From IMG/VR virus record IMGVR_UViG_3300045421_000110, positions 1 through 35,575 of that record: a stretch of DNA of 35,575 nt. One strand, written 5' to 3'. Each line of letters starts with the position of its first letter. The stretch's first letter is position 1. Position numbers and translations under genes: made by a program. The DNA comes from a virus. The notes beneath the pieces were generated by a model. It worked only from the letters and a program-made list of their open reading frames with translations. It had not been told where the DNA came from and ran no database searches. Below are positions 7,080 through 35,575 of this stretch, one piece after another.

Positions 7080-7102
7080 CCGCCGCGTCCGTGCGGCGGG
7101 AT

Positions 7103-7195: not shown

Positions 7196-7205
7196 ATACT
7201 GGTTC

Positions 7206-7799: not shown

Positions 7800-7823
7800 T
7801 CTCTCTCCAATGCGACGCGACGA

Positions 7824-7866
7824 GAACCACGCGATCGAGCGGACTTCGCCGCTCATCGCATCGTTC
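7824..7866 (-). repeat. Structured intergenic repeat, copy 1 (43 nt)
   Basis: gaaccacgcgatcgagcggacttcgccgctcatcgcatcgttc. About 36 of 43 nt are identical to 10054-10095. On the - strand it folds as a three-segment hairpin 7 nt after the GIY-YIG stop. Confidence 0.7.
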
Positions 7867-7873
7867 GCCTACG

Positions 7874-8404: not shown

Positions 8405-8446
8405 GATGGATGTTCCTCTCGTCGCAAGCGGCTGAATGCAAGCGTT

Positions 8447-8986
8447 CTACCTTCGCCTTGTCGGTTTCCACTGAACCACGTTGCCCGCCTCGGCCCAAAG
8501 GCGATCGACGTTTCCGATAACCCATCTCTCTATAGACTCGTCCCCACCGCCTGCCCCGTGGCCCATGCACCAATACGTCACGCGAGGGCTTATCCCGAAC
8601 GCCGCTGATGCGTGAGCCGGAATGCGGATTTCGTTTCCTTCGCAGTCGTACCTACACCCCCACTCGTAGCGCATGCACTGGTGCCCGCGAAACTGGTCGA
8701 TAGTGAAATACGGCTTCACCTCGACAAGCAGATCGTGATAGCCGTCGCATTCGGAGTGGCCGCAATGAAACCTCACATAGAAGTCGGGCGTCCACCCCAT
8801 CAGGTCAATCGGCTCGTACTGCCATTCCCATCCGGCCAGATCGAAGAACGCCGCCCACCTGGCCTCAAGCCGCGACCGAAACATAGTTCCTTTGTAGAGC
8901 GTCGGGTGCGACTTGATCGCGTAGTCGAAGTGATGCCCGGTAGAACCAAGCGATGAAGCAGACATCTCAGCGGAGTCTTTCGTCAT
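8447..8986 (-). CDS. PD-(D/E)XK-like nuclease-fold protein, paralog B (with a Cys/His-rich insert)
   Basis: FRSRLEARWAAFFDLAGWEWQYEP...GWTPDF...LLVEVKP. The insert HCGHSECDGYH lies between the D and ExK elements. The C-terminal LWAEAGN..W is shared with paralog A. Confidence 0.6.
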   Translation of the reverse strand: MTKDSAEMSASSLGSTGHHFDYAIKSHPTLYKGTMFRSRLEARWAAFFDLAGWEWQYEPIDLMGWTPDFYVRFHCGHSECDGYHDLLVEVKPYFTIDQFRGHQCMRYEWGCRYDCEGNEIRIPAHASAAFGISPRVTYWCMGHGAGGGDESIERWVIGNVDRLWAEAGNVVQWKPTRRR

Positions 8987-9030
8987 GGGAAATCCTTTCT
9001 TCGATGCTGCTTATCGCAAGCGTTCGCTGG

Positions 9031-9261
9031 CTACTTGCGAGCCCTCTTTTTTTTCGCTCGTTTCCAACGCGCGGCTGCCGCAGCATGAGCCTGATCTGCC
9101 GCCCGTGGATTGCCCTGCGGCATGTCCGGTGTCTCTACCCTCAGCAGCCGAGCGAGGCCACGCCGTATCGCCTCGCTCGGTGTGCATCCGTGAGCCTCAC
9201 ACCATTGCGACAGCGGCTCAGCGAGCGGCCCAACGACGAATGTGATGCGAGGCGGGATCAT
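9031..9261 (-). CDS. Ribbon-helix-helix (CopG/Arc-like) DNA-binding protein
   Basis: Start at MIPPRITFVVGPL (ATG 9261 in an ATGA overlap with the upstream stop). The pattern is a beta-strand, then helix L..W....G.T.SEAIRRGLARLL, then a basic tail. Confidence 0.55.
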   Translation of the reverse strand: MIPPRITFVVGPLAEPLSQWCEAHGCTPSEAIRRGLARLLRVETPDMPQGNPRAADQAHAAAAARWKRAKKKRARK

Positions 9262-9818
9262 GCCGGCCCCCACAGTCTCCAGCCCCCGGCGACATGATAG
9301 CTGCCGAGCACAGGACTGCTGGGGTGGCTGTGGACCTCCTCCATGTCGCATACGATCGCGTACCCGGCGGCCTCCAGCGCCGCCGCAAAATCGTCCTCCG
9401 ACATAGATGAGCCGTCGATGTCCAGATCATTTTCGGCGTCGGTATCGGCGCCGTCTATCCACTCCCGCATATCAGCGGCCTCGGCAATCGCTATGGCTGC
9501 GGAGACAGACTCCGCCTCGATGCTGTGGCTGATAGGTCCGTTTGCGTCGCATACGGCGTAGTACTTGGTCATCACTGCCACCTTGCAGGTCGCCGCGTCC
9601 TCCACGTCGCTCGCGGTAGCCTTAGCAGCCAGACTTCGAGCGATCTCCGCCAGCCCAGCGATAGTGTGTCGCGCGTCGGCACACTGATACTGCGTGGGCA
9701 CCCAGCCGCTCCCCTCGCAGTAATCGACCTCGACCGGCGACGAGGCGAGCCGCAGGTCGCACCGCACCGCCATCCGCTCAGCACCGAGACAGCCACCGGT
9801 CAGCGTGATCGTGTCCAT
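9258..9818 (-). CDS. Hypothetical acidic protein (186 aa)
   Basis: First gene after the predicted promoter. In the C-terminal half, 17 of 51 residues are D/E with one basic residue (AEAADMREWIDGADTDAENDLDIDGSSMSEDDF...). No motif recognised. Confidence 0.6.
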   Translation of the reverse strand: MDTITLTGGCLGAERMAVRCDLRLASSPVEVDYCEGSGWVPTQYQCADARHTIAGLAEIARSLAAKATASDVEDAATCKVAVMTKYYAVCDANGPISHSIEAESVSAAIAIAEAADMREWIDGADTDAENDLDIDGSSMSEDDFAAALEAAGYAIVCDMEEVHSHPSSPVLGSYHVAGGWRLWGPA

Positions 9819-9868
9819 GTCATCGTCTCCGAGGATCGCTCGCGAGTCTCATTCGCTCGCATGGCCCC

Positions 9869-9896
9869 ATGATACCAATCATCGGAAGATTGGCAA
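9869..9896 (-). promoter_or_regulatory. Sigma70-like promoter candidate with an embedded inverted repeat
   Basis: Minus strand reads TTGCCA-N16-TATCAT. The inverted repeat CCAATC-N7-GATTGG overlaps the -35 and spacer. It lies 50 nt upstream of ATG 9818, in an AT-rich 235-bp gap. Confidence 0.45.
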
Positions 9897-10053
9897 GTGA
9901 GAATGAAAGATTTTCGGAAATGTGGCGTTTTGCACGGGAAAGATGCTGATTTTCTCCGTCCTGCGGCTACTTGCGCCGTAAAATCTCCTCCCCGGTCATA
10001 TGCCGGATACCTCACTTTGCGTCGCTTTTCTCATACAACTGGGGTGCGCCATC

Positions 10054-10095
10054 GAACCACGCGATGCTGCGGACGAGCCGCTCATCGCATCGTTC
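10054..10095 (-). repeat. Structured intergenic repeat, copy 2 (42 nt)
   Basis: gaaccacgcgatgctgcggacgagccgctcatcgcatcgttc. It lies 4 nt after the methyltransferase stop. The fold is the same as copy 1, and the differences are concentrated in the loop and inner stem. Confidence 0.7.
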
Positions 10096-10099
10096 TCCC

Positions 10100-10867
10100 T
10101 CAGAATAGGACGCCCTGCGACAGCCGCTTGGCCGCTATCTCGCAGTAGCGTTCGTTGACCTCGATTCCGATGCCCCGTTTTTTTTCGCCCCTGGCTGCAA
10201 TCAGTGTCGTTCCGCTGCCCATGAACGGATCGAGTACTATCCCGCCGTCTGGGCAAGATGCCGCGATGCACCTCGCAGCCAGAATCGCCGGAAACGGGCA
10301 CGGGTGCCCCTTCACTTCTCGCTCTGGCATGATCCGCCAGACGGTCATCTTTGTGTTCTGCGAACTGTCCCAATGATGCGGATTCCCGAATCCGTAAATG
10401 TATTCGTGCGAAGGCGAGAACTTTCTGGCGTTTAGCGTGATGCTGCCCCCGCGATCCCAAACGACCTCCGAATAGAAAGGCCAAGGGAAAATCGACAGCG
10501 GATGAATGCCTTGTTTGTCGCGGTATCGCGTCTTGTGATTGATCCAGACGAGCCCCTTCGATAGCCGTCGGCAATGACCGAATACCTCCCGCATCCATTC
10601 CTGGTATTTTGGCTCGTCAAGATCATCCGAGTATCCGTCGTAGCCTTCGTTTTGCTTGCGCTTGTACTCGGCCATCAGTCCCGACGGTTTCGTAGCCGCG
10701 ATGGTGTTGTATGGTGGCGAGGAGAATGTAATGTCGCATTCGGGCAGGTAAGGCAGAATCGCTAGGCAGTCCCCGTGATAGATGGTGATTCCATCCCGTT
10801 CGTAGTACGGAACCAGGCAGGGAGAACCAATCGTTGGAGCAGACCGCTCAGTAACGTCTTCAATCAT
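10100..10867 (-). CDS. DNA methyltransferase, beta-class N6_N4 type, motif IV SPPY
   Basis: Motif IV FSSPPY precedes motif I LDPFMGSGTT. GGAGGA RBS. No adjacent restriction enzyme. Confidence 0.85.
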   Translation of the reverse strand: MIEDVTERSAPTIGSPCLVPYYERDGITIYHGDCLAILPYLPECDITFSSPPYNTIAATKPSGLMAEYKRKQNEGYDGYSDDLDEPKYQEWMREVFGHCRRLSKGLVWINHKTRYRDKQGIHPLSIFPWPFYSEVVWDRGGSITLNARKFSPSHEYIYGFGNPHHWDSSQNTKMTVWRIMPEREVKGHPCPFPAILAARCIAASCPDGGIVLDPFMGSGTTLIAARGEKKRGIGIEVNERYCEIAAKRLSQGVLF

Positions 10868-10917
10868 GGTGAATCCTCCGTGAGCGGCTGCTCATCGGAA
10901 TCGTTCGGTTTCTGTGG

Positions 10918-11358
10918 TCACTTCGTCCGCGTCAAAAGCCCGCGAAGGGTGGCCACACACCGATCGCTGGCTGGCTCTCCGTCCTGCTCGTAGTCCTCAA
11001 TGAGCCGCTGAATCTCGGTTCGCTCCGCGTCAGTGAGCCGCAGCCTCCTCACTTCCCGCACGAGCCGCTCCACGATGTCCGCAGCATCCGGCACGCAGTA
11101 CTCGTCTCCGCACACGCACTTGTCCGGCAGCACTTCGCGAGCCGCAAGGCGAATCGCGTCGTCCATTTCGGCCTCGTCCGCGTTTGCCTGCGTCGCCGCA
11201 CGCCGCAGCCTAGCGATCTCCTCCCGCTGGTCCTTGAGGTCGCCCATCAGGCCAATCTCCTGGACGTGCGACTCGTCGAAAAAAATCTCAATCGTCGATC
11301 GGTCTGGTTTCGGCATTTCAGACCGCTCGCCTGCGTCTTCCATTTTGTCATCGTCCAT
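10918..11358 (-). CDS. Hypothetical acidic protein
   Basis: Start taken at MDDDKMED (ATG 11358, after the RusA stop at 11370); the longer track ORF overlaps rusA. Coiled-coil-like, with no motif recognised. Confidence 0.5.
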   Translation of the reverse strand: MDDDKMEDAGERSEMPKPDRSTIEIFFDESHVQEIGLMGDLKDQREEIARLRRAATQANADEAEMDDAIRLAAREVLPDKCVCGDEYCVPDAADIVERLVREVRRLRLTDAERTEIQRLIEDYEQDGEPASDRCVATLRGLLTRTK

Positions 11359-12853: not shown

Positions 12854-13103
12854 CCGTGGCCTCCTTCCGTAGTCTGGCCTGCACCTTGTAGAGCAGGTCC
12901 GACGCCTCCTTCAGCGTCAGCCGGCCGTCGTCCATCGCGTCGAGGATCATCCCCTGCACACCGATCGGTGGCCGGCTGGCAGACGGCACCATCACGTCCG
13001 GCGAGAACTTCATGCCCCCCACCGGGTGACGGAGCCGCAGGTCGTCGAGCGGGGCGCACTCGACCAGGGCGGCGAAGTCGGAGTAGGGGGTGGGGGTGGT
13101 CAT
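12843..13103 (-). CDS. Hypothetical protein (86 aa)
   Basis: Ordinary composition, coupled to its neighbours. Confidence 0.45.
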   Translation of the reverse strand: MTTPTPYSDFAALVECAPLDDLRLRHPVGGMKFSPDVMVPSASRPPIGVQGMILDAMDDGRLTLKEASDLLYKVQARLRKEATGGR

Positions 13104-13105
13104 TG

Positions 13106-13672
13106 TCAGCTTCGCGTAACGATCGGCTTTTCAACCGAGAAGCCGAGCGGACAGTTCTCGTTGGCGATCGTGGTATTCGTTTTGTGATGCCGGCGAAATG
13201 GTTGCTCAGTGAGCGTGTCGGGGTGAATGTCAAACCTCACGAGCCGAACAAGCTGCTCAAGAGAGACCTCTTTCTCCACCAAGAATCCATCGCGGCTCAT
13301 GTCAAAGCGACACCACTTTATCCATTCGGAATCCAGCGGTGTCGTTCCGCTCATACGAACAACTGCGACCCCGAAGTTACGCAACGTCTGACCACGCCAC
13401 TTGATCGCCTTCAGTGTCGTTGCCTGCTTTTTGCGGTATGTGTCTCTCTGGCTGTCTGTGAGCGATCCACCGCGAGTCTTTACCTCGAGTTCAATCATCG
13501 ACTGAACTTCTCGCGTTCCGCTTCCGTCAACGACGCTAATGTAGCGATGCACAAACGTGTCGACGTCTGTCTGAACCCACCCGCAATCGCTGGAGAACGA
13601 AGGCAAATCGAGACACGACCGGCACCACGCCATAAAAGGAACATCGGAACCAAAAACCCTATCTCGCGTCAT
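13106..13672 (-). CDS. PD-(D/E)XK superfamily nuclease candidate (VRR-NUC-like pattern)
   Basis: QTDVDTF...MIELEVKTRGGSLTDSQRDTY...G....FGVAVVR gives a D...ExK...Q...G order. AT-richer than the flanks. The ATG overlaps the methyltransferase stop (ATGA). Confidence 0.4.
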   Translation of the reverse strand: MTRDRVFGSDVPFMAWCRSCLDLPSFSSDCGWVQTDVDTFVHRYISVVDGSGTREVQSMIELEVKTRGGSLTDSQRDTYRKKQATTLKAIKWRGQTLRNFGVAVVRMSGTTPLDSEWIKWCRFDMSRDGFLVEKEVSLEQLVRLVRFDIHPDTLTEQPFRRHHKTNTTIANENCPLGFSVEKPIVTRS

Positions 13673-14817
13673 CGGACTGCCTTCGTGATTCGCTCGCTTG
13701 CGCGAGCTAGGTTCGCTTCGTCGATCTCAAACGCAGCCCACTTCCTTCCGAGAGCTATGCACGCCGCTGGAGTTGTTCCACCGCCGCAAAACGGGTCAAC
13801 AACAAACCCATCCGGCTCCGTGAGCAGCTCAATGAAGTAGCGGGCCTCGGCCTCGGACTGCTGCCACTCGTGGTGCGACTTCTCTCTGGTGCCGGTGGCG
13901 ACGTCGTTGACGAACGTCGTCTTGTCTCCGCGTGTCTCCTTCACGAACCAGAGCATCGGCTTCCATCCGTTCACGATTCCGTACTCGTTCATACGGAGCA
14001 GGGTCGGGCCGCTGTGGTAACACGAGCACGTCCACCAGTACCGTAGATGCTTCGACAGGTCTGCGACTGCGTCCGGGAGTTGGATCTGTCCGATGTAAGC
14101 GATCAGGCTTCCGCCTGGACGAAGCACGCGAGAGGCGAACGCACCGAGTCCGTCGAACAACTCGATCGCCTTCCGGTCGTACGGAGGATCTGTGAAGATC
14201 AGGTCAACCGAAGCATCCGGTATCTTGTGGCCGATCTCACGGAAGTCGCCGTGATACAGGCCGTCGACCTTGCGGCGACGTTTCTTCGCCTCCTCCTTCT
14301 CGGCGTCGCGCTTCTTCGCTTGCGACTCCTCGCGAATCTCAGCAACGCACCGCTTGCAAGAGAAGTCCTTCCCGGCCTCTGTCGCGGCCGCGGCCTTGGC
14401 GTCGATCTCCTCCGGCGTCAGCGCCAGCAGCTTCACGCCGGCAGCGGCGATGTCCTTAGATATTCCAAGGTCAGCCAAGGTCGTCTTGGTCGATCTTGAA
14501 TCGCCAAGATCGTCTGATTCGATCTTGCTTCTACTCCCGCCATGTTTCGCCAATACCCCCTCCTCGCGGAGACGTTGGGTCACTTCGCCAACCTTGCGGA
14601 CGGCCTTTGAGTGAGATGCCCCGCACCGGTTTTGCACAGAACGGCTGGCGTCCACTTGCTTGGCAAGCAGGCGACACGCCGCGGCCATGTCGTACGCACG
14701 CAACACCTCGTCCGGCTCAAACGCAGTGGCGATGGCATGCTCAACTTGAGCCTGAGTTCTCTCGATCGACTCTGCCGTCACCTTGGACACTCGATTCCTT
14801 GCCAGAGCCTTACCCAT
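13669..14817 (-). CDS. DNA methyltransferase, beta-class N6_N4 type, motif IV DPPY, with an N-terminal extension of about 200 aa
   Basis: Start at MGKALARNRV (ATG 14817). Motif IV LIFTDPPYD, then motif I VVDPFCGGGTT. The N-terminal domain is unassigned. Confidence 0.85.
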   Translation of the reverse strand: MGKALARNRVSKVTAESIERTQAQVEHAIATAFEPDEVLRAYDMAAACRLLAKQVDASRSVQNRCGASHSKAVRKVGEVTQRLREEGVLAKHGGSRSKIESDDLGDSRSTKTTLADLGISKDIAAAGVKLLALTPEEIDAKAAAATEAGKDFSCKRCVAEIREESQAKKRDAEKEEAKKRRRKVDGLYHGDFREIGHKIPDASVDLIFTDPPYDRKAIELFDGLGAFASRVLRPGGSLIAYIGQIQLPDAVADLSKHLRYWWTCSCYHSGPTLLRMNEYGIVNGWKPMLWFVKETRGDKTTFVNDVATGTREKSHHEWQQSEAEARYFIELLTEPDGFVVDPFCGGGTTPAACIALGRKWAAFEIDEANLARASERITKAVR

Positions 14818-15037
14818 TCCCAGCCTCCTTTTTGGTGTTCTCCCGCCTCTGAATCTCCCGCCGGATGTACCACTCCGCTTTCCGCAGATCCTCGATCGCG
14901 TCACCCTTCAAGCCGGCCCGCCACAGATACTTCACGGCGTTCCCGACGTTGAACGTGAAGTGTTCCGCAATAGTCACACACTCCACGCCGCTCGGGTGAG
15001 CGTTGTAATGTGCCGGGTTGTTGACATTGTCGACCAT
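14810..15037 (-). CDS. DUF3310-family phage protein
   Basis: NPAHYN...ECV.I......F..GNAVKYLWRAGLKG...EDLRKAEWYI. ATG 15037 follows a GGGAGGAAG RBS. Confidence 0.7.
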   Translation of the reverse strand: MVDNVNNPAHYNAHPSGVECVTIAEHFTFNVGNAVKYLWRAGLKGDAIEDLRKAEWYIRREIQRRENTKKEAGNG

Positions 15038-20142: not shown

Positions 20143-20462
20143 TCGTCCTCCAGCATCGCGGCCAGTTCGTCCGGGAACTGCCGCAGGATAGCGATAGCCT
20201 CCTCCGCGAACTCCGTTACCTCGGTCTCGTCGAGACACCACCAGCGTGCATGGATCAGCTCGTGGAGCAACGTCTCCACGAACTCCAGGCCGACGGCCTG
20301 CCGGCTGATCCTGATCCGCGGGTGAGGATTCGTCGGCGGGTCGGCCTCTCCCCACACCTTCGCGATCGAAAGCGGCGCAGACGCCTCGAGACTGTAGCGG
20401 ACGCCGCCGATATTCAGGCGGCGCACGGCGGCACGTGGCTTGCGGCGGCGGGGGCGCTTCAC
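20139..20462 (-). CDS. Small HExxH zinc-metallopeptidase-like protein (ImmA/IrrE- or SprT-like)
   Basis: The GTG start overlaps the upstream TGA (GTGA). RIRISRQAVGLEFVETLLHELIHARWW carries the HExxH motif. Confidence 0.5.
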   Translation of the reverse strand: MKRPRRRKPRAAVRRLNIGGVRYSLEASAPLSIAKVWGEADPPTNPHPRIRISRQAVGLEFVETLLHELIHARWWCLDETEVTEFAEEAIAILRQFPDELAAMLEDE

Positions 20463-21496
20463 GACGACCTCACCTTCCCGTTCGTGATGCGGTAGTTCTG
20501 AACGTTGAACTGCCCATCGGCCGCGATCTCGACCGCCGCGAATCCGTGGTTCCACTTGTTCAGCCGCGCGTACTCGGGATGCAGCCCGCACAAGCACCCC
20601 GTTGACCAACAGAATACCTCACGCCCGAACATGTCCGGCTCACAGTGAGCGCTCGTGCGGTGGCCGTGGCCTTCGAGGACGGTATGGTTCAGCCGCAGAA
20701 AAGCCCCGCGGGCCTGATTCACCGGGGCCGTGAACCCGTTGCCCTTCTCGTGGCCGTGGAGCAGCGGCAGTTTGCCGGCCATGATCGGCCGCTTATCGTC
20801 CACGAACTCAATGCCGTGGTCGGGCATGTCGAGCCACTGGTCGAGGCCCATGCGTGGATCGTCCGAGATCTCCGGGGCGTGCTGCCACAGCCAGTGAGCC
20901 CACCGCTCCTCGTGGTTCCCGCTCTTGAAGACGATCGGGATGTCTTTGAACTGGCCGCGGACCCACGCGAGCAGCTCGCGGGAGGCCTCGACCTCGCCCC
21001 GGAAGTTCCTTAGTTTCGGGTTCTTCTGGTAGCGGCTGATCGCGTAGAAGTCGAGGGCGTCGCCGTTGAGGACGAGGGCGTCGATCCGGTCTCCGCGGAG
21101 GGCGTCGACTGCCGCCTGGAGGGCACGCTCGTCGTGGTAGGGGACGTGGATATCGGACAGCACGCCCACGGTCCCGACGACGTCGAGGACGGCCGGTTTC
21201 CAGTCGTCCACCTTCGAGGCCGGCATGGGCGGGCCGCGGTAGCCTGCGGGCCGTGGCGGGCGTGTGGCAACGGGGGCGACGACGTGCCGGCCGCCCCGCT
21301 GTCGTGAGCTCCGACCGAACTGGTTCAGAATCCGCATGCGTGCGGCATTGATCGAGATGGCGCCGCCGGACTCCTCGACGAGCCGCCGGGCCAGCGTCCG
21401 CGCGGGGGCGTCTGGGTGCAGCCTGCAGAGCCGCTCGGCCATGGCCGTGATCTCATCGCGTCCGTTCGTGCTTCGGCCGTCCTTGGCCTTTGCCAT
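20459..21496 (-). CDS. Calcineurin-like metallophosphoesterase with an N-terminal helical domain
   Basis: SDIHVPYHD, NGDALDF, SGNHE, LHGHE and EGHGHR in canonical order. ATG 21496 is 6 nt after GAGGTG. Confidence 0.8.
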   Translation of the reverse strand: MAKAKDGRSTNGRDEITAMAERLCRLHPDAPARTLARRLVEESGGAISINAARMRILNQFGRSSRQRGGRHVVAPVATRPPRPAGYRGPPMPASKVDDWKPAVLDVVGTVGVLSDIHVPYHDERALQAAVDALRGDRIDALVLNGDALDFYAISRYQKNPKLRNFRGEVEASRELLAWVRGQFKDIPIVFKSGNHEERWAHWLWQHAPEISDDPRMGLDQWLDMPDHGIEFVDDKRPIMAGKLPLLHGHEKGNGFTAPVNQARGAFLRLNHTVLEGHGHRTSAHCEPDMFGREVFCWSTGCLCGLHPEYARLNKWNHGFAAVEIAADGQFNVQNYRITNGKVRSS

Positions 21497-21511
21497 TCGC
21501 GTCACCTCGCT

Positions 21512-21942: not shown

Positions 21943-24393
21943 CTATGACGAGATACCGAACTCCGTTTCCTGCTCGCCGCTGGCGCGGCGAATCGTCAAT
22001 CGCTTATTCGGCCCGCTTGGCCCCACCCACCAGTGAGCAGGCTGCGGCATCGGTTGCCCCGTCGCCTGCGATGCCGCCACGCGCTCGTCAACCCAATCCA
22101 CGACGCCTAGCGTTGGCTCGAACCAACTCACCGGCTCGCCGCTTACGGTGCTGACCGATCGGCATGAGTTGTCCTCCCACCCTGCCGGATAGGTCGTGAC
22201 GTCCACGGGCGGATCGAGCTTGGTCGGCAGCTCGTCCTCCGTGACCTCGTAGTCCTGCCGGTAGAACGCTCCGCCGTGGCCGAGCGAGATACTCGACGGC
22301 ACGGGCCGGTAAAACTCACCGGGATCGCCGATCGTGACTGTCCACCTGTTCGGCGTGCCCGTCGTTTCTTGATCGCCGAACTCATTGACGCGGTACGAAT
22401 AGAGCGTGACCTCTGCCTGCCGGACCACCACCACCCCGGCCTGCGTTTTCACCGTGAGACTGACCGACGTGCCAATGGGAATGTCAGGCCACCCGAATGG
22501 CTGGGTGTGTTTCCAAACGTGGATGATTGCCCCATAGCCGAGCGCCGGCCCGCCGAAGCCCTCTAAGGAAGTCAGGACACCTCCATCGTCGATCACGCCC
22601 CACACCGCGTTCGGGTCGGCGAACCGCTGGGAATCGGCTGGCAGGATCGAGTAGCGACGCACCCACGCCCCCCACGAAACAGTCAGCGTCGGCCCGCCGA
22701 CAAGCGTCACCGTGAACCCCGGCAGCGTGACCTCCGTCACACCGTCTGGCATGACGAGGACGGGGGCCGATGCCGGCGGCGCGTGATCGACGTTGATCCA
22801 CCCGTAGGCATTTCGCTCACAGAGCGTGTCGGCGCTTCTTGCGAACGTGATCGGCGTCCCTCGCTCGATCTCTTGCGTCGGCACCTCGACCGATGCCGTC
22901 CAGTATTGCTTCGCCCCGGCGCCGGCTGGGATCATCGTCACTTCCAAATCGACCACACCGTCGATCCCCTGTGCGGTCGCCGTCACTTCGGGTGCCGACC
23001 TCGTCCTTTCGACGCGGTACTGAGTCTGGCCGATGAATCGCTTCTGCGACTTCGCCCCCAGCGTGATCGAGCCGAATGACGCCACGCCTGGGTAGAGCGT
23101 TGGCGCGAGCGTCGTCGTGATCGAGGAGACTCGCCCCATCGCGTTGATCGTGGCGGTGCCTTGGTTCAACGCCACAGTCGAGCCGTTGCGGAATAGGTAG
23201 ATCGGTCGCGTCGTGTTTGGCGGGTAGCCTTCGCCACCATCCACCAACTCGATACTCGTCACCGGCCAGCCGCGAGCGCCTCCCGCACCAATCACCGCCG
23301 ACTCGCCGAATGTAACGCTCAGCGTGGCCGGGGTCGTGGGGTTGCCGAAGAAGGCGCTTGGGGGTCCGACGGTCGGGTCTGTGTAGACGCGGGCAACGAG
23401 CGGCGGCGGGGAGTGGCCGGTCGATTCCCAGCCAAGATCAAGATAGTCGTTCGGGCCGGCGATCAAGTTGTACGGCCCGTATCCATAGATGCCGCGATCC
23501 ATGTAGGTCGTGTGGACTCTCGTGCCGTTGATCGGCCGCACGCGAAAGACTGTGCCGTACTCGTACCCCGTGCCTGGCGAGTCCACCGTGATCGTGTCGA
23601 TCTCCCACCAGGGATTGCCGGCCAGGTCGGCGTGCTGCAGCCACGACAACGTGAACGACGCACCGCTGCCGCTGCCTTGGCCGAAAAGCTGGATCTCAAC
23701 CTCCGGCGGCACACGATGCCGGTACGGCAGGGCGCGGTAGCGCGTCTCGAGCAGTGACGCCGCTCCGGTCGCGGAGATCCAACTCCACTGCTCGACGGCC
23801 CAGTTCGCCTCCCCCTCGACCCACGCGACGTGGGACCAATACTGCCCGAAAGCGCCCGTCTGCAGTGAGTCGAACGGACGCGGCTGGGCCGGCGTCCACA
23901 GTGGATGGTTCGCATGCGCCGTGCCGAATCGCCCCCGCGGCCCCCACGTGCCACACAGTCCGACCTCCAGGCCGGCGCCGTTCTGCTCGTAGAGTCCGGG
24001 GTCGATTCCCGATATTCCGCTGCCGGTTCCGCCGAGCGACGTGTCGTTGACCCACGACGTTTCTTCGCCAACCCGCACCGTGTCAACAAGAAGGCTTGCC
24101 GTCCCCGGCGTGCCCCACGGTCCACCCCCGACAAACCCCTCACCGACCCACGTGACCGCCACGCACCCCGTCGTGCCGTCGATCCCAGCCGACGCCGTGA
24201 ACGTCCTGGGCGTGTTCGCCGTCATGGTGCGCGACGAGATCGGATTGGACTCACCATCCGGCGGCGAAGGAAGCCACTCCTCACGCCGCATCTCGCCAGT
24301 GCCCGACCCCGTTGTCATTGACACGTTGATCGTGGCCGCGCGCGGCCACGTGCAGGCGCACCCACAGCACAGACAACCAGGCAGCATGATCAT
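21943..24393 (-). CDS. Large tail tip / baseplate-type structural protein (about 816 aa)
   Basis: Its position is two genes after the tape measure. It is long and Gly/Thr/Val-rich with no enzymatic motif recognised. The preferred start, ATG 24393, overlaps the upstream stop; this gives the N-terminus MIMLPGCLCCGCACTW. Confidence 0.6.
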   Translation of the reverse strand: MIMLPGCLCCGCACTWPRAATINVSMTTGSGTGEMRREEWLPSPPDGESNPISSRTMTANTPRTFTASAGIDGTTGCVAVTWVGEGFVGGGPWGTPGTASLLVDTVRVGEETSWVNDTSLGGTGSGISGIDPGLYEQNGAGLEVGLCGTWGPRGRFGTAHANHPLWTPAQPRPFDSLQTGAFGQYWSHVAWVEGEANWAVEQWSWISATGAASLLETRYRALPYRHRVPPEVEIQLFGQGSGSGASFTLSWLQHADLAGNPWWEIDTITVDSPGTGYEYGTVFRVRPINGTRVHTTYMDRGIYGYGPYNLIAGPNDYLDLGWESTGHSPPPLVARVYTDPTVGPPSAFFGNPTTPATLSVTFGESAVIGAGGARGWPVTSIELVDGGEGYPPNTTRPIYLFRNGSTVALNQGTATINAMGRVSSITTTLAPTLYPGVASFGSITLGAKSQKRFIGQTQYRVERTRSAPEVTATAQGIDGVVDLEVTMIPAGAGAKQYWTASVEVPTQEIERGTPITFARSADTLCERNAYGWINVDHAPPASAPVLVMPDGVTEVTLPGFTVTLVGGPTLTVSWGAWVRRYSILPADSQRFADPNAVWGVIDDGGVLTSLEGFGGPALGYGAIIHVWKHTQPFGWPDIPIGTSVSLTVKTQAGVVVVRQAEVTLYSYRVNEFGDQETTGTPNRWTVTIGDPGEFYRPVPSSISLGHGGAFYRQDYEVTEDELPTKLDPPVDVTTYPAGWEDNSCRSVSTVSGEPVSWFEPTLGVVDWVDERVAASQATGQPMPQPAHWWVGPSGPNKRLTIRRASGEQETEFGISS

Positions 24394-24740
24394 CACGAGC
24401 ACTCCGCAGCCACGACGTACCATCGTCCGTTTCCGTGGAGCGCCACCGACACCCACTTCCCGGCATGGATCGTGGCGTATTTGTTGACGACGTCCTCGAC
24501 GGTCGCCCCGGTCGTCTGCGTTTCGCTCGGCGGCGTGCCGTCCTCCCAAACGTTCAGCGTCGCGACCGTGCCCTTCGTGAAGGTGCTCGTCGTCTTACAG
24601 AGCCGGTGGGGCGTGTCGTCGCCGCCTTGGCGGAACCGCACCGGCGGCATGTCACGGTTGCCGCCCTCGACTGCCTTCACGGCGCGGCCGATCCGCTTCG
24701 CGGCGTCCTCGGTGAATGCGACCTTGCGAGCCTTCGCCAT
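24393..24740 (-). CDS. Hypothetical tail protein (115 aa)
   Basis: Lies between the Dit-position gene and the large tail protein. Coupled starts and stops. Confidence 0.5.
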   Translation of the reverse strand: MAKARKVAFTEDAAKRIGRAVKAVEGGNRDMPPVRFRQGGDDTPHRLCKTTSTFTKGTVATLNVWEDGTPPSETQTTGATVEDVVNKYATIHAGKWVSVALHGNGRWYVVAAECS

Positions 24741-30697: not shown

Positions 30698-31924
30698 TCA
30701 CGGGGTCTTGGCGAGACGAGCAACGAACGAGGGACCGTTGTTGACGAGGCCCATCCGGGTCGACGCCACGAACAGCGTCTGCCGGTTCCGCACGAGGAGT
30801 TCCTTCGCTACGGTGATGTTCACGCCCTCCTGACCGAGCCCGATGGCGGTCGACTTCGAGAAGTCGCCGTACAGGGCGTAGGTCGTCGAGGGCATGCCCT
30901 TCGCGATGTAGACCGGGGCGCCGAAGATCGTCGGCACCACGCGGCCGCCACCGACCGTCATGGTCGTCTGCTGGGCCGACCACAGCTTCATCAGGTCGAC
31001 GTACCCACGCTTCGAGGCGACCCACGTCCCGGTCCCCATGATCGTCTCGTCAACCAGGCCGACGACGTCGGCGAGGTTGGCGAGGGTCGTGAGGGCCGCG
31101 CCGGTCGCGACCGTGATCGTCTGGCCGCCCGACACCGCGGCCGGCAGGCCGGTGATCGTCGGGTTCGAGCCGTTGCCGGACAGCCACACCGTGTCGTACC
31201 AGACGGCCATGCCGTACGAGATGCGGTCGGCCACGAGGCCGGCCACGTCGATCGGGCTGTCGTTCAGGAGGGCGTTCGACACCGCGACCGATCCGCCCGC
31301 CTCGTAGAGGGTCAGGTCGGACGACGCGGTCGCGAGGTCCTGATCCGTGAAGGCGGTGCCTTCCGCGGCGAACCCGACGGTGAAGTTGCCGGAGGTCGGC
31401 AGCTTGATCGTCATCGAGTTCGGCCGGTAGATCGACGCGACCTGCAGCGCGACGCTGCGGTACTGCAGGAGGTTCACGATCGCGGCGTTCAGTTCTGCTA
31501 CCACGTAGGAGTCGCCGAAACCGCTGGCCGTCTCGCCCATGGCCCGGGTGCTGACGCCGGCCATCCGGCAGAGGTAGGCACCGACGGCCGCGGCGGCCTT
31601 CTTCGACCGGAAGGCCTTGACGCCGGACGCGAGGTCCGGGACGTACTCGTCGGCCGTCTCGCTGGCGTCGGCCGGCAGTTCGCGCTGCTCGCCCTTCGTG
31701 CTCGACGTGTGCACGGCCCGGATGGCGGCCACCCGGGCGTCGAGATCGTGCTCGGCCTTCGCCGCGGCGGCGACCTCTTCGGATCGCTTCGCGGCGGCCT
31801 CGAGTCGGCTGGCGATGTTCGCCGCGTCGGCCTCGTCCTTCGGCTCGATCGCACGCAGATCGGCGATCGTCTTTTCGAGAGTCACGGCCTCATCCTGCAG
31901 GCGGGCGAGCTTGGGCGACGGCAT
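30698..31924 (-). CDS. Major capsid protein, HK97 fold, with an N-terminal coiled-coil (delta/scaffold-like) region
   Basis: Start at MPSPKLARLQ (ATG 31924, GGAAGGAA RBS). About 100 aa of helical, acidic N-terminus are followed by a capsid-type body. Synteny supports the call. Confidence 0.85.
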   Translation of the reverse strand: MPSPKLARLQDEAVTLEKTIADLRAIEPKDEADAANIASRLEAAAKRSEEVAAAAKAEHDLDARVAAIRAVHTSSTKGEQRELPADASETADEYVPDLASGVKAFRSKKAAAAVGAYLCRMAGVSTRAMGETASGFGDSYVVAELNAAIVNLLQYRSVALQVASIYRPNSMTIKLPTSGNFTVGFAAEGTAFTDQDLATASSDLTLYEAGGSVAVSNALLNDSPIDVAGLVADRISYGMAVWYDTVWLSGNGSNPTITGLPAAVSGGQTITVATGAALTTLANLADVVGLVDETIMGTGTWVASKRGYVDLMKLWSAQQTTMTVGGGRVVPTIFGAPVYIAKGMPSTTYALYGDFSKSTAIGLGQEGVNITVAKELLVRNRQTLFVASTRMGLVNNGPSFVARLAKTP

Positions 31925-31992: not shown

Positions 31993-32319
31993 TCACCGTT
32001 TTCCGGTGGGAGGATTTTTGGGGCACGCTCCGGTCGGGCAGTCAGCGGCCGCGCCCTTCTCTCGCTCGGCCACGCACCGCCGGCACCGGCACTCGCACTT
32101 CTGCGTGATGCGACCGTCGGGCTTCCAGAGGCCCTTGACGCACGTTTCACCACAGTCACACGACTTCGGCGTCGGGGTTGGAGCCGGCCGCGAGTCCTTG
32201 AGCATGGATGCGTGCGCCACGCTCACAGCGGCCGCGGCCCGCGCGTGCTCGAGATTCACGACAGCGGGGTCGGCAGAGAACCACACCAACCACGAAATGA
32301 TCCAGCGCCAGAGCAGCAT
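31993..32319 (-). CDS. Small protein with an N-terminal hydrophobic anchor and a Cys-rich C-terminal domain
   Basis: MLLWRWIISWLVWF, then CDCGETC...CECRCRRC...C....C, giving nine Cys in the last 55 aa. Confidence 0.55.
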   Translation of the reverse strand: MLLWRWIISWLVWFSADPAVVNLEHARAAAAVSVAHASMLKDSRPAPTPTPKSCDCGETCVKGLWKPDGRITQKCECRCRRCVAEREKGAAADCPTGACPKNPPTGKR

Positions 32320-32321
32320 GA

Positions 32322-32600
32322 TCAGAGCCCTCGCACGTGGTTCACGATCGGGAACCCGTCGTCGCCGAGCTCGGCCGGCGAGGACCGCACGACACGCTCG
32401 CGTTCCTCGATCGCTTCAGGCGATTGCTCGGGCGGTGCCGGCTCGAAGAACGCCGCGGCCCACAGGAGGTTCTTGGCGGCGCTGATGACCCACCGCAGCA
32501 CGGGCCGAGACGGGGCCGGCGTCGGGGAGACGTCGGCACCACCGGCCCAGTAGGCGAGGAGAACGACGGCGACGATGCACGCGAGCGAACGACGAGACAT
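32322..32600 (-). CDS. Small secreted/membrane-anchored protein (92 aa)
   Basis: ATG 32600 is 5 nt after GAGGTGA. MSRRSLACIVAVVLLAYWAGGA looks like a signal or anchor, followed by a Pro-rich linker. Confidence 0.55.
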   Translation of the reverse strand: MSRRSLACIVAVVLLAYWAGGADVSPTPAPSRPVLRWVISAAKNLLWAAAFFEPAPPEQSPEAIEERERVVRSSPAELGDDGFPIVNHVRGL

Positions 32601-32610
32601 GGCGATCACC

Positions 32611-33777
32611 TCAGAGGGCTAGGGACTGGATCTGAACCGGCGTCGTGCCCTGCGGCGAACCGCGCCGCGTCGGTGCCGGCTCGGGCGGCGCGGGTCCGAT
32701 GAAGGCACCGTTGTCGAGATCGCGCCAGCCGAAACCGGTGACGGAGCCCACCGCGAACGAGTCCTCGCCAGAGAGCATCCGCTCCACGGTCGCACGCTTC
32801 ACCCAGAACGAGCCGTCGGGCATGTCGGCCGGCCACTTCGGCCCACCGATCCACGATGGCCCCCAGCTGTTCAGGCAGAGGAGGCCGTCATCGGGACTGC
32901 CGTTCTTCTTGTAGCGCACGCCGACGAAGCACATGCAGTGAGCCCACGAGCCCTGGGCGGCCGCGAAGCCGGCGTCGTTCCGCTGGGACGCGAAGCCCTG
33001 CCCGGAACAGACGGGGATCGGGAATCCCGACTCGATCGCGGCGGCCGCCTCGGTGAACGTCTTCACGATGGCGACGTGGGTGGCCGGGTGCTTCTTCGCT
33101 TCGGCGTCGAGCTTGCCGCCGTCGCCCTTGCCACCGCATCCGTACGCGCCCCATTCCTTCGCCCGGTCGGCGGAGTAGGTCGTGAGGTCGAGCGACCCGT
33201 AGCGGTCGCGGTAGATCACGCCCCACTGACGAACCCACCGAGCAGCTGCGGCACCATACGACCCGTCGCTGTACCCGCCGACGGGACTGCGGCCGTCGCC
33301 CGACTTCCCGCGGGCCTCGACTCGCGAGCCGCCGTAGATCGCTTCGGTGCTCGGGAACGGTGGCGGGTTGGCGAGTCGGCCGGTCTCCCAATCGACACAC
33401 TGGGCGACGTAGATACCGTGCGCCCAGCCCCAACTGACGCAGTCGCCGATGCCCTGCCGGCCGACCACGAACGGCTTGCCGTACAACGCTTGGTGCGCCT
33501 TGTACGCGGCGCGGTACAGGAACGTGTCAGCCCCCTTCGCCTCGCGGAGAGCCGCGGGGCCGGCCTCGGCGAACGTCGGCTTGTCCAGTTCGCGGAGGAA
33601 CCGCCGGACGCCGTCCGGGTTCGGCGTCCATCCTTGAGGCTGGCCGTCGTCACCCATCACCGGGATCGGTCGCGGCGCGCGTGGCACGTACTGCTCGCCG
33701 ATGATGATGCCGAGCGAGACGGCGATCACCGCGACGATCGAGAACCAGTAAACCGCAGCCTGGATCCGGTCCTTCAC
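32611..33777 (-). CDS. Papain-like (clan CA, C1-like) cysteine peptidase with an N-terminal signal-anchor
   Basis: Transmembrane stretch AAVYWFSIVAVIAVSLGIIIG. RQGIGDCVSWGW resembles QG.CGSCW (Gln/Cys). WAHCMCFVGV resembles H....VGY. CLNSWGPSW resembles NSWG..W. All are in papain order. Confidence 0.7.
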   Translation of the reverse strand: MKDRIQAAVYWFSIVAVIAVSLGIIIGEQYVPRAPRPIPVMGDDGQPQGWTPNPDGVRRFLRELDKPTFAEAGPAALREAKGADTFLYRAAYKAHQALYGKPFVVGRQGIGDCVSWGWAHGIYVAQCVDWETGRLANPPPFPSTEAIYGGSRVEARGKSGDGRSPVGGYSDGSYGAAAARWVRQWGVIYRDRYGSLDLTTYSADRAKEWGAYGCGGKGDGGKLDAEAKKHPATHVAIVKTFTEAAAAIESGFPIPVCSGQGFASQRNDAGFAAAQGSWAHCMCFVGVRYKKNGSPDDGLLCLNSWGPSWIGGPKWPADMPDGSFWVKRATVERMLSGEDSFAVGSVTGFGWRDLDNGAFIGPAPPEPAPTRRGSPQGTTPVQIQSLAL

Positions 33778-34346
33778 TTGACGTACCTCCCGGCCTCACG
33801 GGCCACCGTGCGGAAGGCCGCGATCCACTTCGCCTTCTCCTCGGGCGTCAGCGGCCCGCCGGACGTGCCGGCCGCGGAGTCGAGGTATCGCTTGATCTCC
33901 GCCCGCACTCGCGGGTGGCGGTCGCCGATCGAGTCGCCCTTCAGCCGCATGTCGAAGGCCCGCGTCCGCAGCTCGTCGAACGCGATGCCGGTCGTGATGT
34001 CGGGCTCGGCCTGGTCGGCGTCCCACTCGACGTCCGAGGCGATCTCGTCGAACAGGGCCTCGACCCTCGCGGTATCGGCGGCCGCCTCGGGGTGCGCCGC
34101 CCACAGGCCGGCCAGGCTGATCGGGCTGTCGGGCGGAGTCGGGGCCGGCGTCGGCGTTCGCGACCCACGGCCGCCGAGCAGGAGCAGCAGGGCCAGGGCG
34201 ACCATCCCGGCGGCGATGACGTGCCGGAACTGAACGGCCGGGTACTTCTCGCGGAAGGCCGCGAGCCACGCTTTGGCCTTGGCCGCGTCCACGAACTGCG
34301 AGGCGGCGGCGAAGAGAAGAGCGATTCCCAACAGCGTCTCGATCAT
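33774..34346 (-). CDS. Two-transmembrane-segment membrane protein with a 130-aa soluble C-terminal domain
   Basis: LLGIALLFAAASQFV and VIAAGMVALALLLLLGG. ATGA overlap with the protease stop and GTGA overlap with the peptidase start. Confidence 0.6.
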   Translation of the reverse strand: MIETLLGIALLFAAASQFVDAAKAKAWLAAFREKYPAVQFRHVIAAGMVALALLLLLGGRGSRTPTPAPTPPDSPISLAGLWAAHPEAAADTARVEALFDEIASDVEWDADQAEPDITTGIAFDELRTRAFDMRLKGDSIGDRHPRVRAEIKRYLDSAAGTSGGPLTPEEKAKWIAAFRTVAREAGRYVK

Positions 34347-35326
34347 CGTCCGGTTCCTCCTGTGGCGATCCGCATCCGGGCCGCCGCGGCTGCTGCCGCG
34401 GCACGGGCACCCGCGAGCGTGGAGACGGCAACCGGCGTCTTCCGCTGCTCGGCGATGCCCTCTGGGTAGTCGTCGATCCAGATGTCGACCTCGAGGCCGG
34501 CGGCCGCCGCGGCCGACCGCTTCTTCTGGCCGGCACCGCAGAGCAGGATCTGGGGGACGTCCAGACCGTCGAACGCGAACCGCAGTTCATCGCGGTTCTG
34601 TTCGGTGTCTTCGCGGCGAGAGATGCACACCACGCGGTTCCCGCGGGCGGTGGCATCAGCCACGAACGAACGCCACAGGCCGGTGGCCGCGGCGAACGTC
34701 CGATCGTAGTCGATGGAGATGACGAGCCCGCGGTCGCCGGCCCGGTTCTCCACTACGCGGCGGTTCGCCTTCCACGCCTCGATCGACCTGAGGCCGATCG
34801 ACGACTGGGGGTATGCCGGATAGGTGACGGCCGAGATGTCGAACAGGCCGGACGCCCGGAACACCGTGCGGATCACGTTCCCCTTCGCGTCCTCGGTCCA
34901 CGTCTCGCCGTCGGGGGCCGCCGTGAACGCGAACGACGCGCCGGTGACTGTGCGGTCCTCGACGAGCTTGACGAGGTCCCGGCCGTGCGTCGTGTCGACC
35001 GGGGTGTGCCGGTAGCCGAGGCCCTTGAGGTCCTTCCTGATCTCCAGACGGCCGTTTGTCGTTCGCCCGGAGATCAGGTGCGACTGATGGTCGAACAGGA
35101 ACGGGACGTCGATCTTGCCGCGATGGTCGTTCGGCGCTCGGTCGACCAGGCCGTCGAACGCGGTCGGCGCGAACTTCTCGCGGAAGCCGCCGAGGTCCAC
35201 CGAGAGCGAGTCCCACGGTGGCGAGATGCCGACGAGCACGGGCGGTTCGCCGTCTCGCTTTTCGACCGTGATCGCGTCTGGGTAGTCGTTCAGCAGCAGA
35301 TACCGCCGCTCGTGGTCATTGGCCAT
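34343..35326 (-). CDS. HK97-type prohead protease (S78/U35) fused in frame to a HAD-like phosphatase-fold domain
   Basis: Protease part: FLFDHQ (His) and TGASFAF (Ser), ending at SAVTYPAYPQ. C-terminal part: ISIDYDRT (DxDxT), VVCIS, GQKK and WIDD in HAD motif I-IV order. No stop lies between the two parts. Confidence 0.75.
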   Translation of the reverse strand: MANDHERRYLLLNDYPDAITVEKRDGEPPVLVGISPPWDSLSVDLGGFREKFAPTAFDGLVDRAPNDHRGKIDVPFLFDHQSHLISGRTTNGRLEIRKDLKGLGYRHTPVDTTHGRDLVKLVEDRTVTGASFAFTAAPDGETWTEDAKGNVIRTVFRASGLFDISAVTYPAYPQSSIGLRSIEAWKANRRVVENRAGDRGLVISIDYDRTFAAATGLWRSFVADATARGNRVVCISRREDTEQNRDELRFAFDGLDVPQILLCGAGQKKRSAAAAAGLEVDIWIDDYPEGIAEQRKTPVAVSTLAGARAAAAAAAARMRIATGGTGR

Positions 35327-35575
35327 TGGTTGACCCTCCAGTCGTGATGGCCGGCGTCGCGTTCGTCCCGAGCGGGGCGAATCCCTGCTGCACGTACGTG
35401 AGATCCGCGGCCGGATCGTCGAGGAGGTCCATGTCCTCGAGGTCGCGGATCTCGTTCGGCTTCAGCGCCCCCATGTTCCAAAGGGCCTGGTACAGGGCGG
35501 CGCGGCTCGCGTCGTCTCCACGCAGGAGGCCGCGCATGTCGAACTTCGCGTAGACGTCCTCCCCGTAGACGTCCT
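35316..35575 (-). CDS. Portal protein, C-terminal part (continuation of 1-1130 across the circular junction)
   Basis: ...LLRGDDASRAALYQALWNMGALKPNEIRDLEDMDLLDDP... is the typical portal C-terminus. Same frame as the hand-translated 1-1130 ORF after subtracting 35,448. Confidence 0.85.
   Translation of the reverse strand, partial: DVYGEDVYAKFDMRGLLRGDDASRAALYQALWNMGALKPNEIRDLEDMDLLDDPAADLTYVQQGFAPLGTNATPAITTGGSTNGQ
35449..35575. repeat. Terminal direct repeat, copy 2 (identical to 1-127)
   Basis: Same comparison as copy 1. The sequence diverges immediately outside (35448 is unique sequence). Confidence 0.95.

Follow-up and report, generated by a model that had tools for sequence, protein, structure and literature searches.

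Several phage systems are known in which enzymes travel inside the head. Enzymatic domains fused to head-interior proteins, among them the MuF polymorphic toxins, the polyvalent proteins and the Nudix fusions, have been read as packaged and then injected (PMC5512222; PMC9503650; PMC5576092), the Nudix domains being fused to MuF, to portal or to a capsid-processing serine peptidase (PMC9503650). Alt and the internal proteins of T4 are directed to the head by a targeting peptide and ejected with the DNA (PMC7411985; PMC9503650). In HK97, the Prohead 1 particle holds ~60 copies of the protease, as against ~90 in phage D3 (PMC12749128), and green fluorescent protein (GFP) fused to a segment of the HK97 protease gp4 gets encapsidated (PMC11626933). 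Here we describe a gene of the IMG/VR virus record IMGVR_UViG_3300045421_000110, whose full stretch of 35,575 nucleotides is called the window throughout. Our preferred reading, which we hold with slightly more belief than doubt, is that this gene encodes an HK97-type prohead protease with a ~100-residue capless HAD phosphatase domain inserted before a conserved C-terminal helix, and that the inserted domain is a capsid-loaded, catalytically active phosphatase cargo. The full version of this reading, in which the phosphatase is ejected with the DNA as an early effector, is a tentative extension that we judge rather unlikely. The parts of the gene are given below, with residue numbers counted along its open reading frame (ORF) of 327 residues.

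34343..35326, minus strand: complete ORF of 327 residues, comprising prohead protease, mini-HAD domain and C-terminal tail in one frame (from the ORF list)
34772..35239, minus strand: HK97-type prohead serine protease domain, residues 30-185 (Pfam, TIGR01543, PHROG, BLASTP against HK97 gp4)
35087-35089 and 34934-34936, minus strand: codons of the catalytic His80 and Ser131, respectively
34736..34771, minus strand: helix and variable linker, residues 186-197, including GTG192 (model helix 179-190, then a low-confidence stretch; identity 45%)
34442..34735, minus strand: predicted minimal, capless HAD-type phosphatase domain, residues 198-295 (PHROG, AlphaFold2, Foldseek, hhalign, motif conservation)
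34697-34711, minus strand: motif I, D206/D208/T210
34619-34621 and 34613-34615, minus strand: motif II, S236 and R238, respectively
34520-34522, minus strand: motif III, K269
34469-34474, minus strand: motif IV, D285/D286
34421..34441, minus strand: second linker, residues 296-302, rich in Pro, Ala and Glu and of variable length (predicted local distance difference test score, pLDDT, <50 at 296-301; identity 38%)
34364..34420, minus strand: conserved Ala-rich amphipathic C-terminal helix, residues 303-321, STLAGARAAAAAAAARMRI (identity 79%; model helix 304-321), followed by six final codons and the stop, as far as 34343

Regarding the protease part, sequence comparisons confirm residues 30-185 as an HK97-type prohead serine protease. 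Indeed, this segment matches Pfam PF04586 (Peptidase_S78) with an E-value of 3.5e-28 and 99.3 bits against a cut-off of 21, and matches to TIGR01543 (proheadase_HK97; 61.5 bits, cut-off 59) and to PHROG 80 ('head maturation protease') were obtained as well. In a BLASTP alignment with HK97 gp4, His80 (LFDHQ) falls on His65 (FFNHK) and Ser131 (GASFAF) on Ser114 (GMSVGF), reported by Duda et al. in 2013 as the catalytic residues of gp4, and both residues of the window protein stand within blocks (NH and SFAF) kept among the aligned relatives. The HK97 protease pattern that a first-pass annotation, made from the letters of the window alone, had recognized in FLFDHQ and GASFAF is thus borne out by profiles and alignment alike. 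The likeness to gp4 extends to the position of the gene, which sits between the portal gene and that of a major capsid protein bearing its own N-terminal scaffold domain, as expected of an HK97-family protease, and to the presence of a non-catalytic C-terminal extension ending in a helix. Unlike in gp4, an enzyme domain is inserted here between the catalytic domain and the tail, bringing the protein to 327 residues versus 225, and the Ala-rich tail (...AAAAAAVARMR...) is unrelated in sequence to the gp4 C-terminus.

The fusion is real and conserved across hundreds of uncultured phage contigs. A whole-protein search returned at least 120 clusters of 318-339 residues with 56-78% identity, each with the protease Pfam domain, and at least 346 related loci were found in IMG/VR, where ~75 of the 80 loci fetched have protease, HAD motifs and tail in one ORF; in public databases these fusion proteins are named 'HK97 family phage prohead protease' or 'hypothetical' only. 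In the window, the GC content at third codon positions (GC3) is 0.88-0.92 across the protease, linker and HAD parts, and because it stays continuous, we conclude that a single coding frame runs throughout with no stop, in agreement with the first reading of the sequence. Nothing was found in favour of an artefact, be it an assembly error or frameshift joining two genes or a set of chance motifs. Given the same uninterrupted ORF in hundreds of independent contigs from many samples, the continuous GC by codon position, the high-confidence fold and the family-wide motifs, we regard this explanation as practically negligible. Moreover, conservation is unevenly distributed along the protein: mean pairwise identity is 66% in the protease, 69% in the HAD domain and 79% in the tail and falls to 38-45% in the two linkers. 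With 69% versus 66%, the HAD domain is constrained as strongly as the protease itself.

The inserted domain, for which the first-pass annotation had given exactly the limits retained here, shows the four HAD motifs in order and at the places then proposed. Among 41 relatives, D206, D208 and K269 never vary, and conservation reaches at least 90% for T210, D285 and D286. In 113 members of the wider family (27-50% identity to the query), D206, D208, T210, R238, K269, D285 and D286, together with a Trp and a Pro, show little or no variation. Only for motif III does the initial assignment need to be narrowed, since Lys 268 and Lys 269 had been offered as alternatives and the conserved lysine is K269, not K268. 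Two PHROGs of unknown function, 4919 and 4256, match the domain with E-values of ~1e-17. A profile search of 1.84 billion representative proteins retrieved 1,691 clusters at E up to 1e-3, that is, a family of ~1,700 clusters counted at 50% identity, most of which are free-standing proteins of 90-140 residues.

Structure prediction likewise points to a HAD fold, as the first-pass annotation had anticipated for a Rossmann-like C-terminal region. Modelled alone with AlphaFold2, the domain (pLDDT 95, predicted template modelling score 0.86) forms a four-strand beta-alpha sandwich (beta-alpha x4) with motifs I, II and IV at strand ends. In the full-length model, D206-Y-D208-R-T210, which has the +2 Asp of phosphatases, follows strand 202-205, strand 231-236 finishes with S236, helix 269-275 contains K269, and D285/D286 come after strand 282-284. 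Strand 1 is followed there by a short helix (207-211), a break and a second helix (215-227), an arrangement compatible with the HAD squiggle. The domain was modelled separately after the full-length model had returned, in Foldseek, a mixture of weak HAD and generic Rossmann matches with E-values above 0.01. Compared with the PDB by Foldseek, the domain model has its highest template modelling (TM) scores with HAD phosphotransferases throughout, namely the phosphatase of T4 Pnkp at 0.65-0.68, the CopA P-domain at 0.67, Pnkp1 at 0.64 and BT_0820 at 0.63, with non-HAD Rossmann folds at ~0.4; searches of PDB sequences with the whole protein and with the domain profile gave only designed Rossmann proteins. 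In BFVD, small proteins of phages match best (TM 0.8-0.89, E down to 1e-7), and HAD-like, acid phosphatase and PNKP phosphatase are among the names that a few of these carry.

A separate observation from the same database concerns other prohead proteases. BFVD entries A0A6J7WLI9, A0A6J5NSI2, A0A6J5NAI8 and A0A2D1GPC3, among others, are XkdF-type and other 'prohead protease' proteins of 300-760 residues, including the head maturation protease of Lactobacillus phage LJ, and they match the mini-HAD model more weakly (TM 0.58-0.72, E 2e-3 to 2e-2). On these model comparisons, other protease families may carry a similar Rossmann- or HAD-like domain.

Among enzymes of solved structure, the best match is the 3'-phosphatase domain of T4 polynucleotide kinase/phosphatase (Pnkp; PDB 1LTQ, 2IA5), along with the bacterial Pnkp1; like the Pnkp phosphatase, the window domain is without a cap and its active site is open. 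Starting from the sequence of the T4 Pnkp phosphatase, checked against PDB 1LTQ (E 9e-99), 29 homologues were collected for profile comparison. With this 29-sequence alignment, hhalign matched the family profile at an E-value of 5.4e-5 over 95 columns and brought all four motifs (DxDxT, S/T-x-R, K and DD) into register, whereas its result for the T4 Pnkp sequence taken singly was non-significant (probability 1.4%). R238, invariant and two positions beyond the Ser of motif II, falls on the Pnkp SGR motif and, in T4, on Arg213. The window domain differs from T4 Pnkp in its size (~95 residues versus ~145) and in lacking the Pnkp insertions, a match to Pfam PF25109 and a kinase domain; no fused kinase was seen, and no systematic search was made for a ligase or kinase elsewhere in the genome. 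Taken together, motif conservation and modelling place the domain in a minimal and divergent branch of the HAD superfamily that lacks a cap and has the Pnkp-type phosphatases as its nearest neighbours; its catalytic set is intact, and it is apparently a catalytically active phosphatase.

How this domain came to lie within a protease is suggested by relatives without it. In three of them (L080, of 231 residues, L081 and L082), the protease is followed by a ~22-residue helical linker and then by a near-identical tail, ...SLAGAKAAAAAAVARMRAHAG. Because the same tail is joined directly to the protease in these HAD-less relatives, the HAD domain is an insertion between the catalytic domain and a pre-existing tail. 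A third arrangement is found in L084 and L091, where the protease (243-244 residues) has its own copy of this tail, joined directly to it, and no HAD domain, and where a 51-residue Cys-rich gene following the protease gene is itself followed by a separate HAD gene of 122 residues, two genes downstream of the protease and within the head module. The separate HAD protein bears an Ala-rich extension, ...LLKAEQAAARMDQALKG ('...AEQAAARMD...'), of a kind seen in one of ~115 free-standing representatives, most of which end within ~9 residues of motif IV. A survey of relatives had been proposed from the outset as a check, a separate gene with no association to capsids being what would speak against a fused cargo; in most of the IMG/VR loci fetched the domain is fused, L080-L082 are without it, and the separate gene of L084 and L091 has not left the head module and encodes an extension resembling the tail. 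Neither this check nor the one on the fold goes against the reading.

The tail, already noted in the first-pass annotation as an Ala-rich stretch after the domain, lies at residues 303-321 and is the best-conserved segment of the protein. By analogy, we propose that this C-terminal helix is a capsid-targeting tail. In HK97, capsid targeting was reportedly mapped to the C-terminal part of gp4 by Duda, Oh and Hendrix in 2013. The internal proteins and Alt of T4 offer a second parallel, being enzymes that a short targeting peptide loads into the prohead, that the prohead protease processes and that are delivered to the next host; the T4 capsid-targeting sequence is also cleaved by the prohead protease, gp21. 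The T4 signal differs in consisting of the N-terminal 10-20 residues of separate proteins that bind the scaffolding core, whereas in the window protein a helix at the C-terminus is the presumed signal, and protease and cargo form one polypeptide. The cargo-loading peptides of encapsulins are a third parallel, drawn from general knowledge: there too a short C-terminal peptide would send a cargo enzyme inside an HK97-fold shell, and the similar Ala-rich C-terminal extensions on the protease and on the separate HAD protein of L084 and L091 fit the comparison. There is no sequence relationship to encapsulin peptides, and the shell here is a virus capsid later filled with DNA.

Comparing the tail by eye with the capsid protein gave an additional observation. 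The capsid segment before the predicted maturation cleavage site (KKAAAAVGAYLCRMAGVSTR before the cut and AMGE after it; window 31540-31640, residues ~100-130 counted from Met35) resembles the protease tail (GARAAAAAAAARMRIATGGTGR; 34346-34420), the AMGE site being aligned with FNK/SLGS of HK97, where the slash marks the cut. HK97 (L085) shows a comparable resemblance between the C-terminus of gp4 (IKSFPSNLGK) and the region of gp5 that is cleaved (AKTFNK/SLG). The tail may mimic the P-side of the substrate or bind the same site. A common protease cleavage motif, looked for in the capsid protein and in the linkers flanking the HAD domain, gave a merely suggestive resemblance and no usable site prediction.

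The variable linker before the HAD domain bears on whether the domain is made only as part of the fusion. In lambda C/Nu3 and P2 gpO, a prohead protease has an extra in-frame C-terminal functional part, and by the same token the HAD domain and tail could also, or mainly, be translated alone from an in-frame start near codon 192, as a separate capsid-targeted protein. The window ORF does offer a GTG at codon 192, the sole in-frame start candidate upstream of the HAD domain, and one subclade of eight loci has at this position an ATG preceded by GGAG; gene callers, too, have begun proteins there when the upstream sequence was missing. GTG192, however, has no Shine-Dalgarno-like motif 3-18 nt upstream, the GGAG of the subclade arises from Arg-Ser codons, and the 25 codons that precede the HAD domain contain neither ATG nor GTG nor TTG in at least 15 of 46 distinct relatives. 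Because the internal start is missing in so many relatives, a Nu3-like nested gene is not a conserved feature, though individual phages may have one, and the GTG restart that the first-pass annotation had kept in reserve becomes less likely. Nor does the C-terminal part look like a helical scaffold, since it is an alpha/beta enzyme fold, and scaffolding is supplied here by the N-terminal domain of the capsid protein. We consider such a nested gene very improbable. Short close homologues that seemed to be stand-alone (P0001, P0005, P0006, P0010 and P0011) were rejected as separate genes in the two cases looked up: a stretch of N in the scaffold interrupts P0006 without a change of frame, and P0011 begins at a contig end. 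P0005 and P0010 start at the same internal 'VISLDYDRT' position as P0011 and look like the same sort of artefact.

Beyond the prohead protease, the same HAD clade (the RREDTPEN subtype, ~50% identical) is found on the C-termini of PF04860 portals (P0145, P0151, P0153, P0154, P0156, P0171 and P0195) and of a lambda-type portal of family PF05136 (P0158). These portal-HAD fusions often then carry ADP-ribosyltransferase domains, and the HAD domain accompanies ADP-ribosyltransferase (ADPrib_exo_Tox) and Ntox46 toxin modules in P0144, P0145 and P0148. P0173 joins HAD and Peptidase_S78 in the reverse order, and in L086 the portal carries both HAD and ADP-ribosyltransferase domains while the next-but-one gene encodes a plain protease of 211 residues. 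Judging from these domain orders, the domain has been joined more than once, and by different routes, to proteins at ends that face the capsid interior. The locus thereby resembles the effector-head fusions, with an enzymatic domain fused to a head-interior protein, alternating between portal and protease carriers and co-occurring with ADP-ribosyltransferase and Ntox46 modules. It differs from them in that the carrier is the protease itself, that the cargo sits ahead of the tail instead of at a terminus, and that the phage is small (35 kb), temperate and siphovirus-like, not a large myovirus.

Two features of these multi-domain proteins were noticed in passing. A motif, F-C-x-T-G-x-G-G-G-[IV]-D-N-S-C-S-S-K-[DE]-G-G-G, lies between HAD and ADP-ribosyltransferase, metallopeptidase-like or other modules in P0140, P0142, P0144, P0145 and P0148; it occurs in portal-fused and in free multi-domain proteins, twice in P0142, and looks like a module boundary or processing site. 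The portals of some relatives (L001, 1745-3325; P0195) bear a Hva1_TUDOR-like C-terminal extension, which the window portal is without.

Several points weigh against the reading of a capsid-loaded, active phosphatase. Pfam and NCBIfam HAD models do not match the query even at E up to 10, and the curated HAD Pfam models (Hydrolase_3, HAD and Hydrolase) give marginal matches in 7 of the 113 family members, the best at 2.6e-5; because no curated profile matches significantly, the domain is placed in a divergent branch outside any existing Pfam HAD family. Foldseek E-values for the domain model against the PDB are no better than 6e-3, the hhalign probability against the Pnkp-phosphatase profile is only 67%, and the model has four strands with no clear flap beta-hairpin predicted. 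The function of the tail is assigned solely by analogy. None of the cultured phages in the collection carries a protease-HAD fusion. Moreover, motif IV is degenerate in two divergent relatives (P0099 and P0115), free-standing homologues adjoin the DNA polymerase gene in phiEco32-like coliphages, outside head modules, and the HAD domain could be destroyed in the way the self-digesting HK97 protease is.

The two relatives that keep the domain in spite of a degraded motif IV are what a mainly structural or regulatory domain would lead one to expect, i.e., a spacer, an oligomerization module, internal mass in the place of a scaffold, or an inhibitor of the protease until assembly, with catalysis secondary or absent. 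The ~22-residue helical linker of the HAD-less relatives shows that the domain occupies a linker position, and protease-scaffold fusions are generally known from lambda C/Nu3 and P2 gpO. Near-invariance of the catalytic set (D, D, T, S/T, R, K, DD) over 113 distant members, free-standing as well as fused, would nonetheless be unexpected for a spacer; the compact alpha/beta fold is unlike the elongated helical scaffolds, and the capsid protein has its own N-terminal scaffold domain. A purely or mainly structural role is hence, in our view, quite improbable.

A cytoplasmic enzyme of late infection deserves more attention, although we still deem it unlikely. The protease gene would then serve for co-expression, and the phosphatase would act before or outside assembly, on nucleotides or nucleic-acid ends, being cleaved off early or packaged incidentally and then degraded. 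Most family members are indeed free-standing, with ~95 residues and no tail. In phiEco32-like phages the homologue lies in a replication and nucleotide-metabolism region beside the DNA polymerase gene, from which it follows that the family also works outside capsids and is not intrinsically capsid cargo. P0147 is found near a dGTP diphosphohydrolase-like gene and P0018 adjoins a PD-(D/E)XK nuclease. As a matter of general knowledge, the HK97 protease destroys itself after maturation. What speaks for the head interior is, in the first place, that the domain lies upstream of the conserved tail and therefore that whatever targets the tail carries the domain with it. In addition, the independent fusions to two portal families, to a reverse-order protease and to toxin modules point in the same direction, and the stand-alone copy located in a head module has gained a tail-like extension.

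Returning to the preferred reading of a capsid-loaded phosphatase, the following course can be envisaged, in which we infer encapsidation, release, ejection and substrate; the comparisons above lend indirect support to the delivery into the capsid, and perhaps into the host, that the first-pass annotation had suggested. The whole polypeptide would be made late, with the portal and capsid proteins, and its Ala-rich C-terminal helix would dock the fusion inside the assembling procapsid, as the C-terminal part of gp4 does in HK97. By analogy with HK97 and D3, the phosphatase would be co-encapsidated at a protease-like copy number of ~60-90 per prohead. The protease would cut the scaffold domain of the capsid protein, its presumed substrate and docking partner (30698..31924), and then probably itself within the linkers (residues ~186-199 and 293-302), which are poorly conserved and modelled at low confidence. 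In HK97, the protease undergoes self-digestion and the resulting fragments escape from the prohead. Here, self-cleavage would free a compact enzyme of 10-11 kDa that would be retained in the head, leave with the DNA at the next infection and strip phosphate from a macromolecular substrate early in that infection. Capless (C0) HAD enzymes tend to act on macromolecules, a generalization said to go back to Burroughs et al. in 2006. Most plausibly, on sequence grounds, the substrate would be a nucleic-acid 3'-phosphate end, favoured by the Pnkp-like features that include the conserved Arg after motif II, with a phosphoprotein as the main alternative.

A wider proposal can be put forward as a speculation that we ourselves would sooner doubt than defend. 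The tail would be a portable capsid-loading peptide which, attached to the protease or to a separate HAD protein, loads tens of mini-phosphatases per head; the released enzyme would be ejected and, within minutes of the onset of infection, act on a host macromolecule, serving counter-defence or host take-over beside the portal-fused ADP-ribosyltransferases. Its candidate substrates are nucleic-acid ends that defence nucleases leave with a 3'-phosphate or a cyclic phosphate, and phosphorylated proteins of the host.

That head proteins can carry fused effector domains is known. The surveys of such fusions that were checked make no mention of a HAD phosphatase module, so that a HAD phosphatase in that role is not described there, and we found no account of the family or of a domain placed between the protease and its tail. 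If our reading holds, a phosphatase joins the enzyme types carried in heads, so far ADP-ribosyltransferases, nucleases, Nudix enzymes and peptidases, and the maturation protease itself can serve as a delivery vehicle. The tail would then be a natural short C-terminal peptide that may steer proteins into HK97-type capsids, useful for capsid nanocontainers and phage protein delivery. The analysis also defines a large family, of the size given above, that is without a Pfam or NCBIfam model, is of 'unknown function' in PHROGs and goes unannotated within fusion proteins that are labelled only 'prohead protease'.

Regarding the genome that harbours the gene, nucleotides 1-127 of the window are repeated exactly and in direct orientation at 35449-35575. 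Because these ends are identical and an ORF of 429 residues encoding the portal runs across the junction, we conclude that the window is a complete circular phage genome of 35,448 bp. The other head genes to which the text has referred are as follows.

35316..35575, minus strand, and on through the circular junction to window 1-~1180: portal gene, whose 3' end lies in the first interval (429-residue ORF ending in portal C-terminal sequence)
1183-2832, minus strand: TerL
30698..31924, minus strand: major capsid protein with an N-terminal helical scaffold (delta-like) domain (PHROG 10, E 2.3e-32; alignment with HK97 gp5 and relatives)

The C-terminal sequence of the portal matches the portal of the relative L001, and the portal ORF ends 11 nt inside the protease gene, overlapping its start. 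An ORF at 331-1161 on the minus strand was considered as the portal N-terminus and rejected, the true portal ORF being in another frame and crossing the circular junction. On the minus strand, TerL, portal, the protease-HAD gene, four small genes and the capsid protein gene follow one another, with the tape-measure gene further downstream after several ORFs; an integrase gene lies on the plus strand. From this head gene order and the integrase, we conclude that the locus is an HK97-style head module in a temperate phage of ~35.4 kb. The closest cultured phages are distant, identity being no higher than 34% for TerL and 40% for the protease; no relative turned up among the 185,579 GTDB representative genomes scanned, and the window contains no tRNA genes.

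The four genes between protease and capsid protein (window 31993-34346, minus strand) lie at 33774-34346 (190 residues), 32611-33777 (388 residues), 32322-32609 (95 residues) and 31993-32319 (108 residues). Size-matched genes occupy the same place in the relatives L001, L087 and L002, and homologues of the 190-residue type occur in L080 and L084, with or without HAD. Three of the four proteins begin with a hydrophobic, transmembrane-like segment, and the 108-residue protein is Cys-rich. In the 388-residue protein, papain-like Cys, His and Asn-Ser-Trp-Gly patterns can be seen by eye (GDCVSWG, WAHCM and NSWGPSW); it has no Pfam, PHROG or PDB sequence match. Lysis proteins, grouped as a cassette, or ejection proteins could be what these four genes encode inside the head module.

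The tail module has at its distal end, at 20459-21505 on the minus strand, a metallophosphoesterase-like gene (PHROG 221, E 1e-33); it adjoins the gene of a protein of 868 residues (21943-24549, minus strand) that has no PHROG match. Finally, two islands of lower GC content (0.57-0.62 against ~0.66 for the genome) extend over window 7000-11000 and 13000-15000 and are probably made of recently acquired accessory genes. The second contains a DNA methyltransferase gene (13669-14904), and within the first lies a direct repeat of 117 nt with 74% identity, whose copies, at 7650-7766 and 8780-8896, are 1,130 nt apart.

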